From: Escherichia virus TH13
Sequence record: MT446391.1
Length of the DNA: 45,377 nt
Strand: one strand, 5' to 3'
Of this stretch, positions 10,034-40,716 are shown one piece after another. Position 1 is the stretch's first letter, and each line of letters begins with the position of its first letter. The notes beneath the pieces were generated by a model that saw only the letters and a list, made by a program, of their open reading frames with translations, was not told the origin of the DNA and made no database searches. The position numbers were made by a program, and so were the translations under genes.

Positions 10034-10759
10034 ATGGGTTATCAACTTCCTAACGGGTCCAGCGTCCAGATTGGGTCCGTACTGGGCAGCGGCATCGCTG
10101 TTACGGCAGCTACCAACGCCGCCGCATCAATCTCTGACCTTACGCAAGGTTGCGTAATTACCTGCGCGGCTTCGCATGGTCTGGTTGTTGGCGACGTTGT
10201 TATGTTCACTAAAACCCCGTGGGTCCGAGCGCTTAATCGCGCATTCATCGTGGGTAAAGTAGCCGAGAACGACGTGACGCTGGCGCGCTTCGACTCCTCT
10301 GACGTCACAAAATACCCGACCGGCGCTTTCAACGCAGGCACTCCGGGCGAAGTGGTGAAGGTGTCGAGCTTTATCGACTTCCCTTTCATTACTAACGTTG
10401 CCGTGTCGGGTGGCGACCAGCAGACTACTACCTTCCAGCCGTTGCAGGTGAACACCGCAATCAGTCTTAACACCACGAAAAACCCGTTGGTACAGACTTA
10501 CACCTTCACCCACGACGAAGAAGACCCGATCCGCCCAATCCTGGAAGACCTGGACGACACACAGAAAACCACTGTGATTAAGTTCACTAACCCAGCGGCA
10601 GCAAGCGGCAAAGGTGAGATCCGTATCTACCCGGCAAAGGTATCTTTCCAGAAGATTCCTTCCGCTGAAGTAAACAACGTGGAAACTGTACAGTCCACTC
10701 TGACCATGCAGTCTGATATGGTTATCTACCGTAAGGATCTGGTCGAGGCGTTGTCTTGA
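10034..10759 (+). CDS. major tail protein (putative)
   Basis: 241 aa, strong RBS aggag, followed by strong terminator and then the G/GT chaperone and tape measure genes. Confidence 0.6.
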   Translation: MGYQLPNGSSVQIGSVLGSGIAVTAATNAAASISDLTQGCVITCAASHGLVVGDVVMFTKTPWVRALNRAFIVGKVAENDVTLARFDSSDVTKYPTGAFNAGTPGEVVKVSSFIDFPFITNVAVSGGDQQTTTFQPLQVNTAISLNTTKNPLVQTYTFTHDEEDPIRPILEDLDDTQKTTVIKFTNPAAASGKGEIRIYPAKVSFQKIPSAEVNNVETVQSTLTMQSDMVIYRKDLVEALS

Positions 10760-10789
10760 TTTGGTCGCTTAAATAGCGAGTGTTAATAT

Positions 10790-10815
10790 GGGGCCAGCAC
10801 GGCCCCTTTTTTTTT
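10790..10815 (+). terminator. rho-independent terminator after major tail gene
   Basis: ggggcc-agcac-ggcccc hairpin followed by T9. Confidence 0.65.
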
Positions 10816-10831
10816 ATTGGAGAATACTACA

Positions 10832-11194
10832 ATGGCTAAAGCACCACTCTTCACACTTGACCCAAAGCCGACCTTTAAGCTGCCGATTGAGATCCCGCGC
10901 CCTGGTGAGAACGAACCCGGCAAAATGACGTTTACCGTACGCCACCGCCCGATCGACGAATTTTCGCAGACCATGCAGGACACTGAACGCAAGCTGTCGG
11001 AATATGACGACAATGATCCGGACGGCTTTAATGTTATGGTTGAGGCCATCATGCACGTCGCCGAAGGCTGGAATCTGCCGGACGAATTTAACGCGGAGAA
11101 CGTCCGCCGCCTGGTGGTCAACTATCCACGCGCGTTCGGTGTGTTCCACACGTCGTACTATCTCGAACTGATGGGGTTGCGTGAAAAAAACTAA
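10832..11194 (+). CDS. tail assembly chaperone (gpG-like)
   Basis: 120 aa from ATG with RBS ggag; immediately upstream of tape measure region; ends ...GLREKN with slippery A_AAA_AAC heptamer before the stop. Confidence 0.65.
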   Translation: MAKAPLFTLDPKPTFKLPIEIPRPGENEPGKMTFTVRHRPIDEFSQTMQDTERKLSEYDDNDPDGFNVMVEAIMHVAEGWNLPDEFNAENVRRLVVNYPRAFGVFHTSYYLELMGLREKN

Positions 11195-11508
11195 TTGAGG
11201 CGGCGCGACGCTTTTATGGTCCGCCGCCACCCTCCGAAGATTTAGCCGCAAGTTTATGGGGTGCGGCCCCCGAAGATGTTTGTCCGCCTGTTGCGCTATG
11301 GCCCGACAACGCGAAGATAGTCGCAGTCTTCACAGATTGCGCCACGCAATGGCGCACCGGATTTGGTGGCGCATACGGCATCGACTACGGCGTGCTGGAG
11401 TGGTTATTTAAGATGCACGGTATCGAAAACGAGCAGCGCGCGTTTAAAGATATCAAGCTAATGGAACGAATCGCGCTTGATGAGATGGCGCAGCAGAACC
11501 CCGCATAA
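10832..11508 (+). CDS. tail assembly chaperone frameshift fusion (gpGT-like) via -1 shift at 11185..11191
   Basis: -1 frame after the slippery site reads LIEAARRFYGPPPPSEDLAASLWGAAPEDVCPPVALWPDNAKIVAVFTDCATQWRTGFGGAYGIDYGVLEWLFKMHGIENEQRAFKDIKLMERIALDEMAQQNPA, stop at 11506..11508; no ATG-initiated ORF covers this coding-looking stretch. Confidence 0.5.
11185..11191 (+). other. -1 programmed ribosomal frameshift slippery heptamer A_AAA_AAC
   Basis: heptamer in X_XXY_YYZ register at the last two codons of the G-like ORF; the -1 frame is open for 105 further codons. Confidence 0.55.
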
Positions 11509-11819
11509 TGCAGCGGGACGTCCCGTTTTGTCCCGCCTCTGTAAAACTGCATACCTACTCACACCCACTGCATAAACCAAAAACGGGACAAACGGGACGT
11601 CCCGATCTGTCCCGCCATGTAAATGTGCATACCTATTCAGATTTCGTGCATAAAGTAAGCGGGACAAAAAGCGGGACAAACAAGGAGCGGGACAAAGCGG
11701 GACAGCACCCCGTCCCCGCCAGTGCTGCCGCGGGTTGCGGCCGATCGGGACAAGCGGGACAAACCCCAGTCTTTCAGACTAGACGGGGGTCAATGGCCCC
11801 CCTCGTCTGAGACTGAATA
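11509..11819. repeat. GGGACA-iteron element copy 1 (shared ~175-bp core about 11647..11819 plus extra upstream GGGAC(G) repeats)
   Basis: multiple GCGGGACA(A) direct repeats, two CGGGACGTCCCG palindromes, terminal hairpin cagactagacggggg..cccccctcgtctgagactg; near-identical core recurs at 40388..40562. Confidence 0.7.
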
Positions 11820-11883
11820 AGGTTTGTTTTAAATTCGCTGATACAATGTCAATCGGCAACTGCATAAAAAAGGGGACTGCATA

Positions 11884-14526
11884 ATGGCAGATCAAGCGGC
11901 AGGCATCACGCTGAAGGCTGATGTTGCACAAATCAGAACGGCAAATACTGTGCTGGACTCCTTCGCACAGAAATCCGAGAACACAGAAAACAAGGTTAAG
12001 AAATTAAACGACACCCTCGGCAAATCCAAAAAGGTCACTGGCGACGCCGCTGGTGGAATGGAGAAGCTGGCGAACGAATCGCAGCGCGCCGCCGACGGCA
12101 TGACGAAACAGGAGAGACTTGCCAACAGGTTAGGCATGTCGACCAAAAACCTGGGCTTTGCCTCGCGTAACGCCGCATTCCAGTTACAGGATATCGCAGT
12201 TACGCTTGAGATGGGTATGCCTGTTCACCGCGTCATGCTTCAGCAGTTACCGCAGCTAACTGGGGCGTTCGGCGGTCTTGGTAACACGCTGCGTTTTGTT
12301 GCGGGCTTCCTCGGTCCGGTAGGGATCGGCATTGCAGCACTAACGGCAACGTTAGGCGTAGGAGTGGCGGTTACGTCCCGTGCCGAAAACCAGGTCGCAG
12401 CGCTTAACAAGACGCTGGCGCTGTCCGGTAACATTTCCGGCCTCACTGCAAACCAGATCCTTGTGCTATCCGAGAACGCCGAGCGCATGGGCGGGTCATT
12501 CCGCAAGACGCGTGACACAATCCAGGCGTTGGCGGCGGCGGGTGTGAAAGCGGGTGCGGACTTCGGCACGCTGGCGAAAGTGGTGAATGACTTTGCGAAG
12601 GTGTCCAGCCAGCCGGTCGAGGATGTGGTCGCGGCGGTGGCGAAGCTGTCTACAGACCCGGTAGGCGGCTTGCGAGCATTGGCTGATAAGTATCACGTCG
12701 TAAACGAAGCGCAGATCCAGCAGGTGCAGTCGCTTGTGGATATGGGTCGCGAAACCGAAGCGGTGGCGCTGGCTAACAAAACAGCCGCAGCGTCGTTTAC
12801 CACTATGACCAACGATATTAAGTCCAACATGGGTACGCTTGAGCGTTCGATGAACGTCGTCACATCGGCAGCTAAATCAATGTGGGATGCCATCCTGGAT
12901 GTTGGACGCGCGCAGTCCTCTAATGAGTCTGAGATGAAAGCGCGTGAATCATTGCAGAGGCTGACCACGGCTTACTATGCCGAGATGAAAGCGGTAAACG
13001 CTGCCGGTGGGGTGATGACCGAAGCGCAGAAAGCGCGTATTAACATGCTTTACAGCGAACTGGTAGCCCAGGAGAAGGTGGTGGCATCGCTCACCCTGCG
13101 CAACCGTGCCGAGCGAGACAACGCAAATGCCGCGGACGAAGCAGCAAAGGCGAACGAAGAGGCAAACCGCACCGCCCGCGACCGCGCTGCGTTTGAGAAG
13201 GAGTACGCAACCAACGCGAAGCGGCGAGCCGACGAGATCGCCCGCCTCAATTTGCTGAATAAGCGCGGTGTTATTAACGAGAAAGAGCTTGCCGAGGCGG
13301 TGAAGCAGGTAAACGAGCGTTACAAAGACCCCGCCCCGAAGAAGGCCGCCGCTGTTCGAGTCGATGCCGGGCTGAAAATGCTGGAAGTCGCGCGAAGCGA
13401 ATTAGCCCAGCTTCGTGAGTCTGGAAAGCAGATCGAAGCCAACTATTCGACGCAGACCCGCACGCAACGCGCGCAAGCGGCCCTTAACAAGCTGATTGCC
13501 GACAACGAGCAGTTAATCGCTGCGAGCAAAGAAAGGGCGCTGACGGCAGCAGAGAAGCAGCAAATGGCGGGATTCGAGGCGGTTAAATCTGTACGCGAGC
13601 AGATCGTCGAAGAAGCCAAATTGCTGGACGCGAAAGAGAAGCAGGTCAAGGCGCACGCGCAGATCGACGCCTTCGTTAAGAACCAGAACGCCGAGCTAAA
13701 AGCCACCGCGGCGGGCTATGCGCTTTCCACTCGCGAAGCGGCTAACCTGCGCGAAGAATTGCAGCTAATTGACCGCCTTAAGCGGGTGGGCGCTAGTGAT
13801 ACCGATATTGATCTGGCGGTGTCTAAGCTGCGCGAAGTGCAGGAAGCACAGACCGGTGCTAACGCCTCGCTATGGGATGGATTAAGCCGCGGGCTTAAGG
13901 ATAGCGTTGATGAAATGGGTAACGGCTATACGCAGATGGCGTCACTAACAAAATTCACGTTCGGCGCTATGCAGGACACGATGAACGAGTTTTTCGAGAC
14001 TGGCAAGCTGAACGCAAAGGATATGGTTAAGTCCATCCTGAGCGAATTAATCAAGCTGGCTACATCGCAGGCGTTCAAGTCCATCGTTAGCGCTTTCGGT
14101 GGCGACGGCGGCAAAAACGGATTGTTCGGTGCTATCTTCTCCGGCCTGACTAAGAATGCGGACGGCGGAGCGTACGCAGGGGGCAATCTCGCGGCCTATT
14201 CGGGGCAAGTGGTAAGCCAGCCTACCTTTTTCAGTTACGGCGTCCAGGCGTTCGCTAAGGGTGCTGGATTGATGGGGGAGGCTGGACCCGAGGCCATCAT
14301 GCCGCTGAAGCGCGGGCCAGACGGGAAACTTGGCGTTGCCGCTGCCGGTGTAGGCGGGGGGATGATTGTAACGACCAACGTTAACATGGGGACCGGTAAG
14401 ACGGATACCAGTGTTAGCGGACCAGACCCGCGCACCGCGCAGGCGTTCGGAAAGCAAATCACCGAGTCGGTCAAGGCCGAGATCGTGAAGGCGACGAAAC
14501 CGGGTGGTGTACTTTACAAACGATGA
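11884..14526 (+). CDS. tail tape measure protein
   Basis: 880 aa, largely alpha-helical/coiled-coil with Gly-rich C-terminal part; follows G/GT chaperone. Confidence 0.85.
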   Translation: MADQAAGITLKADVAQIRTANTVLDSFAQKSENTENKVKKLNDTLGKSKKVTGDAAGGMEKLANESQRAADGMTKQERLANRLGMSTKNLGFASRNAAFQLQDIAVTLEMGMPVHRVMLQQLPQLTGAFGGLGNTLRFVAGFLGPVGIGIAALTATLGVGVAVTSRAENQVAALNKTLALSGNISGLTANQILVLSENAERMGGSFRKTRDTIQALAAAGVKAGADFGTLAKVVNDFAKVSSQPVEDVVAAVAKLSTDPVGGLRALADKYHVVNEAQIQQVQSLVDMGRETEAVALANKTAAASFTTMTNDIKSNMGTLERSMNVVTSAAKSMWDAILDVGRAQSSNESEMKARESLQRLTTAYYAEMKAVNAAGGVMTEAQKARINMLYSELVAQEKVVASLTLRNRAERDNANAADEAAKANEEANRTARDRAAFEKEYATNAKRRADEIARLNLLNKRGVINEKELAEAVKQVNERYKDPAPKKAAAVRVDAGLKMLEVARSELAQLRESGKQIEANYSTQTRTQRAQAALNKLIADNEQLIAASKERALTAAEKQQMAGFEAVKSVREQIVEEAKLLDAKEKQVKAHAQIDAFVKNQNAELKATAAGYALSTREAANLREELQLIDRLKRVGASDTDIDLAVSKLREVQEAQTGANASLWDGLSRGLKDSVDEMGNGYTQMASLTKFTFGAMQDTMNEFFETGKLNAKDMVKSILSELIKLATSQAFKSIVSAFGGDGGKNGLFGAIFSGLTKNADGGAYAGGNLAAYSGQVVSQPTFFSYGVQAFAKGAGLMGEAGPEAIMPLKRGPDGKLGVAAAGVGGGMIVTTNVNMGTGKTDTSVSGPDPRTAQAFGKQITESVKAEIVKATKPGGVLYKR

Positions 14527-27044: not shown

Positions 27045-27368
27045 TTACGCATAAAAGTTCGGGTCGCGTGCGACGTCTACCAGGTAAAGGTTGCTTATGC
27101 GGTTGCCGTAGTGCCCTGGAGTGCGCTGGCGGCACACAACGGCGAAGCCTGGAGGGATTGTATTGCCCGTCTCAATAATCCACGCCACGCGTGCGCCAGA
27201 CAGCGTCTTTCCGTTGCATTCGATACGTGTTCCACCATCGGCAGTATTGATGTTGCCAATCTTGCAGCCGGTGGACTTCAGACGGATGACTCCGGTTTTG
27301 CTGTCGTAGGTGAATAGCTGGTTAGTCATTGCGACTGAAAAATCGATGGTTTCGTATGTAGCGTTCAT
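27045..27368 (-). CDS. hypothetical protein (degenerate HNH-like?)
   Basis: 107 aa; ARVAWIIETGNTIPPGFAVVCRQ...NRISNLYLV loosely resembles the HNH_3-type core but catalytic His/Asn not clearly conserved. Confidence 0.4.
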   Translation of the reverse strand: MNATYETIDFSVAMTNQLFTYDSKTGVIRLKSTGCKIGNINTADGGTRIECNGKTLSGARVAWIIETGNTIPPGFAVVCRQRTPGHYGNRISNLYLVDVARDPNFYA

Positions 27369-28075
27369 TTTAAATTTTCCTCGTTAACCGCTATCGCGAA
27401 GCCGCGCGGAGTGAGTGAGCGGATTAATTTTGTACGAGCGGATTTACCACCGAGGCGACTATACTGTTTCGAGTACCCTTTTTCAACGAAAACAGGTTTC
27501 TTCTCTGGCATACGGAAGCCGTTGCCGGTCCATAAGCAAGTCAGCTTCGGATATGAATCGCGGGCGTTGATGTATTCCGGGAAGAGCGGGTGTACGTCAT
27601 CCTCCGGCAGATACCCCCCATACTCCCACGGGTCGAACGAGTGATCCGGCTTGCGCCACTGGGTGGAAAGCACACTGCGCGGATTCTCAATCATATATGG
27701 CACTTCGAAGAAGTCACCCAGGTAAGCGGCGATCTTCGCGGTGCGCACCGCCTTAAGCTGAAAGGCGGGGTCTTTTGCACGTTTGCGCGGGAAAGCTGGC
27801 GCGCCGCTCACTGCCAGATCCGTACACGGAGGGAACGCATAGATTATATCCGGCGTACCGAAATCGCCATTCATCGCGCGGTCCACAAAGTCCATATCGA
27901 TAAACTCATTGCGATATCGGATTCCACGACCATAAATCCGGTAGTCAAGGTATGATCCGTGATCGGCTTCGGAGTAGTTGAAGCAATAACACTTATGCCC
28001 CATCTCGGCAGCACGCTCAATCATCAAGCCGCTGCCGTCAAACAATGACCAGATTGTCATTTTCGCAATAGTCAT
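27365..28075 (-). CDS. DNA (cytosine-5)-methyltransferase-like protein, unusually short
   Basis: 236 aa; motif I-like SLFDGSG, motif IV-like FPPCTDLAVSG (Pro-Cys dipeptide), motif VI-like MIENP; no room for a typical target-recognition domain or motifs IX/X. Confidence 0.5.
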   Translation of the reverse strand: MTIAKMTIWSLFDGSGLMIERAAEMGHKCYCFNYSEADHGSYLDYRIYGRGIRYRNEFIDMDFVDRAMNGDFGTPDIIYAFPPCTDLAVSGAPAFPRKRAKDPAFQLKAVRTAKIAAYLGDFFEVPYMIENPRSVLSTQWRKPDHSFDPWEYGGYLPEDDVHPLFPEYINARDSYPKLTCLWTGNGFRMPEKKPVFVEKGYSKQYSRLGGKSARTKLIRSLTPRGFAIAVNEENLK

Positions 28076-40313: not shown

Positions 40314-40387
40314 ATTTTGAGTGTTTTTATCTGGTCGTATTGGTTGCCGTGTAGTGTAAATATAGTGAATAGTTATGCAGTTTTATT

Positions 40388-40562
40388 GCATAAAGTAAGC
40401 GGGACAAAAAGCGGGACAAACAAGGGGCGGGACAAAGCGGGACAGCACCCCTGTCCCACCCCGGATGACGCGGCCTGGAGAGGAGCGGGACAGGCGGGAC
40501 AACCCCCAGTCTTTCAGACTAGACGGGGGGTCAATGGCCCCCCTCGTCTGAGACTGAATAAA
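40388..40562. repeat. GGGACA-iteron element copy 2
   Basis: tgcataaagtaagcgggacaaaaagcgggacaaacaagg-gcgggacaaagcgggacagcaccc ... agtctttcagactagacgggggg-tcaatgg-cccccctcgtctgagactgaataa; about 75 bp 5-prime and 60 bp 3-prime near-identical to copy 1, middle about 40 bp diverged. Confidence 0.7.
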
Positions 40563-40716
40563 ATCCGGGGATTGCAAAATACACGGCAGCATGATGCGAA
40601 GTGCGGTCGAGGATGAACTAGGCAACCAATGCGAGATGCATTATGCTGAGTGAAAAATGCAGTTTGCAGTCACAGCAGATAGCGATCAACTTTTTCATGC
40701 GCATGTTTGATATTGG

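Follow-up and report, generated by a model that had tools for sequence, protein, structure and literature searches.

The tail assembly chaperones of phage lambda, G and G-T, are reportedly produced by a -1 frameshift at G_GGA_AAG, as Levin, Hendrix and Casjens are said to have described in 1993 and Xu, Hendrix and Duda in 2004, 2013 and 2014. The lambda slip site is not known to need a downstream structure. The ratio of G to GT in lambda is approximately 30:1, and the two proteins divide the labour of tail assembly such that G, both alone and within GT, binds the tape measure while T recruits the tube protein (PMC5009743).

Chaperone genes of a similar kind are found in the T1-like phages (Drexlerviridae), such as Klebsiella phage Shelby (gp39/gp40), Hafnia phage Pocis76 (ORF42), Citrobacter phage Stevie and E. 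coli phage Rogue1 (gp30/31). GenBank holds a joined CDS for Shelby, named 'tail assembly chaperone frameshift product', and another one for Pocis76, and the frameshift has been mentioned in print for Stevie (PMC4319613) and Rogue1 (PMC3496638). A conserved tail-assembly frameshift has also been named for ORF22/23 of Edwardsiella phage eiAU, flanked by the genes for the major tail protein and the tape measure (PMC3025963). This relative of Dhillonvirus SSL-2009a is a member of another phage group, its slip site is not specified in the publication, and eiAU is likened to the present locus by its published description.

We analyzed the corresponding locus of Escherichia virus TH13 (MT446391.1), using as the window the whole stretch of 45,377 nucleotides. 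In TH13, as in lambda, the genes for the major tail protein and the tape measure flank two overlapping ORFs, the second of which is in the -1 frame without a start codon of its own, and a canonical heptamer is present close to where G ends. In both phages, the expected outcome is an abundant short product and a rare fusion. However, no similarity to the lambda G/T sequences was detectable (BLASTP E 4.4; hhalign probability 0.9%), and no Pfam matches were obtained to PF06894 or PF06223, the lambda gpG and gpT families. The lambda proteins belong to Phage_TAC_2 and Phage_tail_T, whereas those of TH13 belong to Phage_TAC_4 and DUF1799. The TH13 heptamer ends in AAC, that of lambda in AAG; the TH13 stop codon abuts the heptamer, whereas the lambda stop is 19 nt past it; TH13 has a hairpin at 7 nt; and the distance from T to the tape-measure gene is 375 nt in TH13, whereas the lambda T gene overlaps H. 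TH13 G/T is predicted to work like lambda G/GT, but outside of lambda's sequence families.

The T1-like chaperones have T proteins that are 27–39% identical to TH13 T. Shelby and Pocis76 contain the same Pfam pair as TH13 (PF08748 + PF08809), and most of the T1-like chaperones have the same A_AAA_AAC-stop junction with a hairpin in the same register. They differ from TH13 in that Jk06 and Rogue1 would slip on A_AAG and Shelby on A_AAA_G, and in that the tape-measure gene follows within approximately 40 nt, with no GGGACA array in between. The TH13 site also resembles E. coli dnaX (A_AAA_AAG and a stem-loop) in its Lys-rich A-run heptamer and in the GC stem-loop a few nucleotides downstream. 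However, AAC takes the place of AAG at the end of the TH13 heptamer, an internal Shine-Dalgarno stimulator is not established for TH13, and the logic of genes and products is unrelated, in that the dnaX shift truncates its product whereas the TH13 shift would extend it.

Genomic setting

The window represents a Dhillonvirus (HK578-like) genome, complete or almost so, from a siphophage that infects E. coli. The gene order is as in HK578, with terminase, portal and head genes followed by the tail terminator, the major tail protein, two small ORFs and the tape measure, and downstream of these the lambda-like M/L/K/I/J tail-tip genes. The G/T pair is flanked by the genes for the major tail (tube) protein and the tape measure, both of which were recognized by their Pfam domains (Table 1). 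The G/T segment is 100% identical to that of Escherichia virus TH11 (MT446389.1, a record without annotation), and many Dhillonvirus records match the segment 10700-11950 at 94–95% identity.

At positions 10790-10815, downstream of the major tail gene and upstream of the chaperone gene, we observed a textbook intrinsic terminator, GGGGCC-agcac-GGCCCC with a T9 tract after it. It would reduce the transcription of the chaperone and tape-measure genes relative to that of the tube protein.

Organization of the two reading frames

The zero-frame end of G reads CGT GAA AAA AAC TAA, where codons AAA and AAC occupy positions 11186-88 and 11189-91. The first-pass annotation, which was made from the sequence, had placed an A_AAA_AAC heptamer in canonical X_XXY_YYZ register right before the G stop, and its coordinates check to the base. 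The same annotation had described the -1 frame as open for 105 codons with no ATG-initiated ORF to cover it. This agrees with our analysis: the frame opens exactly at the heptamer and continues for 105 sense codons (11191..11505) to a TAA at 11506-08. No ATG, GTG or TTG was found in the T frame before codon 84, which is the first ATG, and the ORF listing has no entry of 40 aa or more for this frame. The end of the -1 frame was also correctly said to adjoin the GGGACA element, with the first CGGGAC motif beginning at 11514, 6 nt beyond the T stop.

The region in which both frames are open comprises only 10 nt, which is essentially the heptamer itself. Because of this short overlap, and of the TGA that closes the -1 frame just upstream, a shift at any other place could not join G and T.

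Table 1. Features of the G/T locus of TH13 and its flanking genes (positions in the window)
Feature	Position	Strand	Remarks
Major tail (tube) gene	10034..10759		PF08813 Phage_tail_3
Shine-Dalgarno GGAG of the chaperone gene	10819..10822	+	9 nt upstream of ATG 10832; read from sequence
G, tail assembly chaperone, 120 aa, standard translation product	10832..11194	+	Pfam Phage_TAC_4, phrog_569
TGA closing the -1 frame just upstream of the heptamer	11182..11184	+	
Slippery heptamer A_AAA_AAC (Lys-Asn), X_XXY_YYZ register	11185..11191	+	
Zero-frame stop TAA	11192..11194	+	Abuts the 3' end of the heptamer; shares bases with the first -1 codon, CTA (Leu)
T extension, 105 -1 codons and stop, without own start codon	11191..11508	+	DUF1799, phrog_680
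GT, conceptual 225-aa fusion, ...GLREKN-LIEAARR...	10832..11508	+	phrog_17368; joined CDS in relatives Shelby and Pocis76
Hairpin GGCGGCG...CGCCGCC, candidate frameshift stimulator	11199..11228	+	7 nt 3' of the heptamer
Tape-measure gene	11884..14526		PF06791 + PF09718

Protein families of G and T

A homology search with the conceptual GT product, proposed earlier as a check, identified both of the domains in the order PF08748 and then PF08809, each above its Pfam gathering threshold. Phage_TAC_4 (PF08748) matched residues 1-120 of the fusion, which correspond to G, with an E-value of 7.6e-23 (81.5 bits versus a cut-off of 21.1), in line with the initial reading of the upstream ORF as a chaperone. 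DUF1799 (PF08809) matched residues 143-219, within T, with an E-value of 3.2e-20 (72.6 bits versus a cut-off of 26). In the PHROG collection, G matched phrog_569 (9.8e-41) and T matched phrog_680 (3.5e-30). A further family, phrog_17368, with 213 profile positions, was matched by the G half at positions 1-107 and by the T half at positions 150-212. This profile spans both halves, which shows that PHROGs already has members in which G and T are a single protein. A sequence search against PDB with GT gave nothing meaningful (E 0.72). Based on the domain content, we conclude that G/T is a member of the Phage_TAC_4 + DUF1799 chaperone family.

Conservation of the slip site in related phages

Using the T part as the query, tblastn retrieved 1,153 phage records, 12 diverse ones of which were opened; these represent Drexlerviridae of several subfamilies and phages of Pseudomonas, Ralstonia, Vibrio and Xanthomonas. 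Another 80 IMG/VR loci were added with a T-domain profile, for a total of 93 loci counting the window. In every locus, both from GenBank (12) and IMG/VR (80), T was encoded in the -1 frame relative to a chaperone ORF, with T proteins that are 27–48% identical. The last two sense codons of G constitute A_AAA_AAC or G_GGA_AAC in 91 of the 93 loci, among them Dhillonvirus, T1-like, Pseudomonas, Ralstonia, Vibrio and Xanthomonas phages. The stop codon is directly 3' of the heptamer in 79 of the 80 IMG/VR loci, and in one locus (L043) G_GGA_AAC precedes the stop by 9 nt. Of the 25 distinct junction contexts, 15 contain A_AAA_AAC, with an A-run of 6 or 7, and 8 contain G_GGA_AAC, with an A-run of 3. 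That two different canonical heptamers share one register, although the proteins are only 27–48% identical, argues for functional conservation of a ribosomal slip site rather than of a homopolymer.

The alignment of T with 11 distant relatives is gap-free and shows similarity from residue 1, which is the Leu residue at the junction. Its codon is made up of the last base of the heptamer and the first two bases of the stop codon. Since the homology extends to this first residue, translation must enter T through the junction. The extension, for which an absence of conservation had been named as part of the grounds for rejection, is thus conserved in related phages, both as a DUF1799 domain and in the alignment with distant relatives from residue 1 onwards. 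The heptamer keeps its register in relatives that are 35% identical, and within Dhillonvirus it is invariant in all sequences. In the phage 'rolling' the stop codon is TGA and the Leu codon is CTG, a single substitution that keeps both readings.

Two T1-like subgroups without a canonical heptamer were observed, represented by Jk06 with GCA_AAG_GTC_TAA (L013 1174-1183) and Shelby with GCA_AAA_GTT_TAA (L014 1057-1066). By their sequence, these motifs imply a putative slippage of a single tRNA-Lys, at A_AAG or A_AAA, with one codon left before the stop.

Substitution patterns in the two frames

Variable sites were counted among 19 distinct Dhillonvirus sequences, following an earlier pass with 10 sequences. 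In G, the variable sites at zero-frame codon positions 1, 2 and 3 numbered 10, 6 and 75, respectively (p=3e-22). In T, the corresponding numbers were 17, 6 and 63 when counted in the -1 frame (p=1.4e-14), and the peak shifted to position 2 when the T sites were counted in the zero frame. Thus, the codon-position signature of the substitutions changes frame at the heptamer, a pattern that shows purifying selection on the -1 frame of T.

Two antisense ORFs overlapping G on the minus strand, 10783..11121 and 10814..11251, were rejected as genes; the substitutions in them track the plus-strand G frame.

A probable hairpin downstream of the heptamer

In the hairpin that follows the heptamer, GGCGGCG at 11199-11205 pairs with CGCCGCC at 11222-11228, with a predicted free energy of -20 kcal/mol (z -2.8). 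All 19 Dhillonvirus sequences have identical arms, with four variable sites in the loop. The longest invariant run of the G/T gene pair in these sequences, 11178-11207, falls in a setting where 61% of the third positions are variable overall.

In the wider family, the outer 4 pairs of the stem are kept in the same register in a set of 64 distinct junction segments. Of these, 59 have G-C or G-U at pair 15-44 and 55 have G-C or G-U at pair 16-43. Pair 17-42 occurs as UA (32 segments), CG (12) and UG (7), and pair 18-41 as CG (29), UA (20) and GC (9). The covariation score was 0.272, as compared to 0.04–0.165 with slid partners, and was reached by none of 500 shuffles, a score in which codons for conserved Ala/Val and Pro are involved and for which the sequences are related. 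Each covarying pair combines a synonymous site with a non-synonymous site, and conservation of amino acids is therefore not sufficient as an explanation. The inner stem is not conserved and varies by clade. RNAalifold predicted no consensus structure for the 64 junction segments, and the fold of an 86-nt context was no better than that of shuffled sequences (z -1.03). The claim for the hairpin is founded on single-sequence folds, on the count of pairs for a named structure and on invariance at the level of the genus. With this moderate support, we regard the hairpin as probable and as a candidate frameshift stimulator. A structure downstream of the homologous Rogue1 site has been independently remarked upon in the Rogue1 paper (PMC3496638).

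Frequency of heptamers and open -1 frames in the window

The probability of finding such an arrangement by chance was estimated from a curated set of 34 genes in the window. In-frame X_XXY_YYZ heptamers occurred at a rate of 0.0015 per codon (17 in 11,473 codons of the window's genes), and only 1.0% of the -1 runs reached 105 codons. The joint rate of a heptamer followed by a 105-codon -1 run is approximately 1.5e-5 per codon, a number that does not include the additional requirement that the site should occupy the last two codons of a gene between the major tail and tape-measure genes.

The minus-strand gene 27365..28075 (236 aa) was observed to end with the in-frame heptamers A_AAT_TTA and T_TTA_AAA (27365-27375). 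It is the only other gene with a heptamer and a long -1 ORF downstream, which comprises 107 codons (27045..27368). A second frameshift at this gene was rejected; the downstream ORF has its own ATG, which overlaps the stop codon, as in ordinary translational coupling.

Proposed mechanism and alternative explanations

The first-pass annotation had matched the locus to the conserved tail chaperone frameshift of long-tailed phages, and the position of the genes, the domains, the conservation of the register and the substitution pattern all agree with that assignment. From these comparisons, we consider programmed -1 ribosomal frameshifting of the G/GT type at A_AAA_AAC to be very probable; that the GT fusion is made, in what abundance and with which role, is inferred. 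Most of the ribosomes would read GAA AAA AAC, stop at the UAA at 11192-94 and release G, whereas a minority would slip one base in the 5' direction on A_AAA_AAC. In these ribosomes, tRNA-Lys would move from AAA at 11186-88 to AAA at 11185-87 and tRNA-Asn from AAC at 11189-91 to AAA at 11188-90. The slipped ribosomes would continue with CUA at 11191-93 and add 105 codons, giving a GT protein of 225 aa with the junction ...REKN-LIEAARR.... Slippage may take place either with the heptamer in the P and A sites or with tRNA-Asn in the P site and the stop codon in the A site, and the product would be the same. By analogy with lambda, the G part of both proteins would coat the tape-measure protein and the T part of the rare GT would recruit the major tail subunit, in which case a single slip site would set the ratio of G to GT.

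The A_AAA_AAC heptamer is far less shift-prone than A_AAA_AAG in E. coli (PMC5009743), and the efficiency of slippage at the TH13 site may be very low. A weak heptamer fits a low ratio of GT to G, and it leaves a role for the hairpin and the abutting stop codon. The GC hairpin 7 nt downstream probably raises the slippage on this heptamer, and possibly the abutting stop codon does so too. As a tentative extension, which we regard as rather less than probable, the Phage_TAC_4 + DUF1799 family may have a composite cassette of a weak AAC heptamer, an abutting stop and a covarying hairpin at 7 nt, in which slow termination and the hairpin would jointly set the ratio of G to GT. If this were true, the family would provide a natural series to test stop-codon-assisted -1 slippage in bacteria.

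The same change of frame could also arise during transcription, if RNA polymerase were to add one A in the A7 run at 11184-11190 and thereby bring G and T in frame with the junction ...REKK-LIEAARR.... The site does contain a homopolymer of seven A residues, and a small contribution from polymerase slippage may occur. However, efficient slippage by the E. coli RNA polymerase needs longer runs, of about 8–9 or more, and it is the register of the heptamer that is conserved in the relatives rather than the homopolymer, with an A-run of only 3 in 8 of the 25 junction contexts and of 6 in five of them. The conserved hairpin at 7 nt also fits ribosomal frameshifting, and we consider polymerase slippage to be improbable. 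We find it more improbable still that T is made as a separate protein, by initiation or termination-reinitiation at the AUU at 11194-96 that adjoins the G stop. Such a start has been annotated for gp16 of HK578 (10795..11109), which begins on the last base of the gp15 stop codon, and AUU can act as a weak initiator codon. However, there is no Shine-Dalgarno sequence in range, and the frame offers no ATG, GTG or TTG as a substitute in its first 83 codons. The equivalent codon in the relatives is AAG, AAA, GAA, AGG or ATC, with no conserved start, and the homology begins upstream of AUU, at the Leu codon of the junction. A separate T would also leave the conservation of the heptamer without a reason.

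Finally, since homopolymer runs are error-prone in some sequencing chemistries, the two frames could represent a single ORF that was split by a sequencing error, or else the -1 frame could be non-coding and open by chance. The two-frame layout with a stop after the heptamer is present in 158 Dhillonvirus records and in all of the distant relatives examined, and the extension contains a Pfam domain and shows a bias of substitutions to position 3, in addition to the low joint chance estimated above (~1.5e-5). The probability that we assign to an artefact or to chance is close to nil, and this reading is already refuted by the comparative data.

Annotation in Dhillonvirus and significance

None of the 13 annotated Dhillonvirus records examined (L001-L004, L097-L106) contains a joined CDS for GT. 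In HK578, T is annotated as a separate CDS, whose ATT start shares its first base with the end of the G stop. Other Dhillonvirus records contain spurious ORFs of 96 nt or 156 nt within T, which start from Met84 or are in another frame, and in some records G is labelled 'tail length tape measure protein'.

The feature is of an already known kind in a known family, textbook for long-tailed phages, and only the family-wide arrangement of heptamer, stop and hairpin and the annotation gap in Dhillonvirus are mildly new. The value of the finding is mainly practical, in that approximately 158 deposited genomes would regain an assembly protein of 225 aa if they were annotated correctly. The arrangement of heptamer, stop and hairpin is a natural series for what tunes low-level -1 frameshifting in E. 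coli, which is an incremental question.

The region between T and the tape-measure gene

The gap from T to the tape-measure gene (11509-11883) comprises 375 nt, as compared to approximately 40 nt in the T1-like relatives, and is unusual for the family. It is not needed to explain the frameshift. The gap contains 9 CGGGACA motifs; the window contains 17, as compared to 6.9 expected, a number reached in none of 100 shuffles. Two CGGGACGTCCCG palindromes are present in the gap, at 11514 and 11593.

An ORF of 100 codons on the plus strand, 11508..11810, has an ATG that overlaps the T stop (TAATG) and is annotated in some records, such as that of Bas85. It matched no Pfam or PHROG family. As a gene coupled to T it was rejected, the variable sites being non-periodic (33/32/25), and it is probably no gene. 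The ORF stops after 11–19 codons in three of the four scorable relatives (L001-L003) and is open for 106 codons in the fourth, a slur05-like IMG/VR contig (L016).

The sequence TGATACAAT at 11839-11847, 37 nt upstream of the tape-measure ATG, resembles an extended -10 promoter element when read by eye; a promoter consensus scan, which requires a -35 element, gave no flag at this position.

A module of approximately 215 nt (11618-11835) is repeated near-exactly at about 40360-40575, downstream of the helicase-primase gene, with identical spacing of the motifs. In most of the listed Dhillonvirus records, the query segment matches at least two places, which would fit a duplication of the module that is common in the genus. 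A search of the window with Rfam at gathering thresholds gave no match. Within the repeated module, at 11756-11830, we observed a long GC-rich hairpin with a predicted free energy of -36.7 kcal/mol (z -3.85), for which none of 200 shuffles was as good. The hairpin is followed by GUUUGUUUU, is present in both copies of the module, and could be a terminator or a structured RNA.
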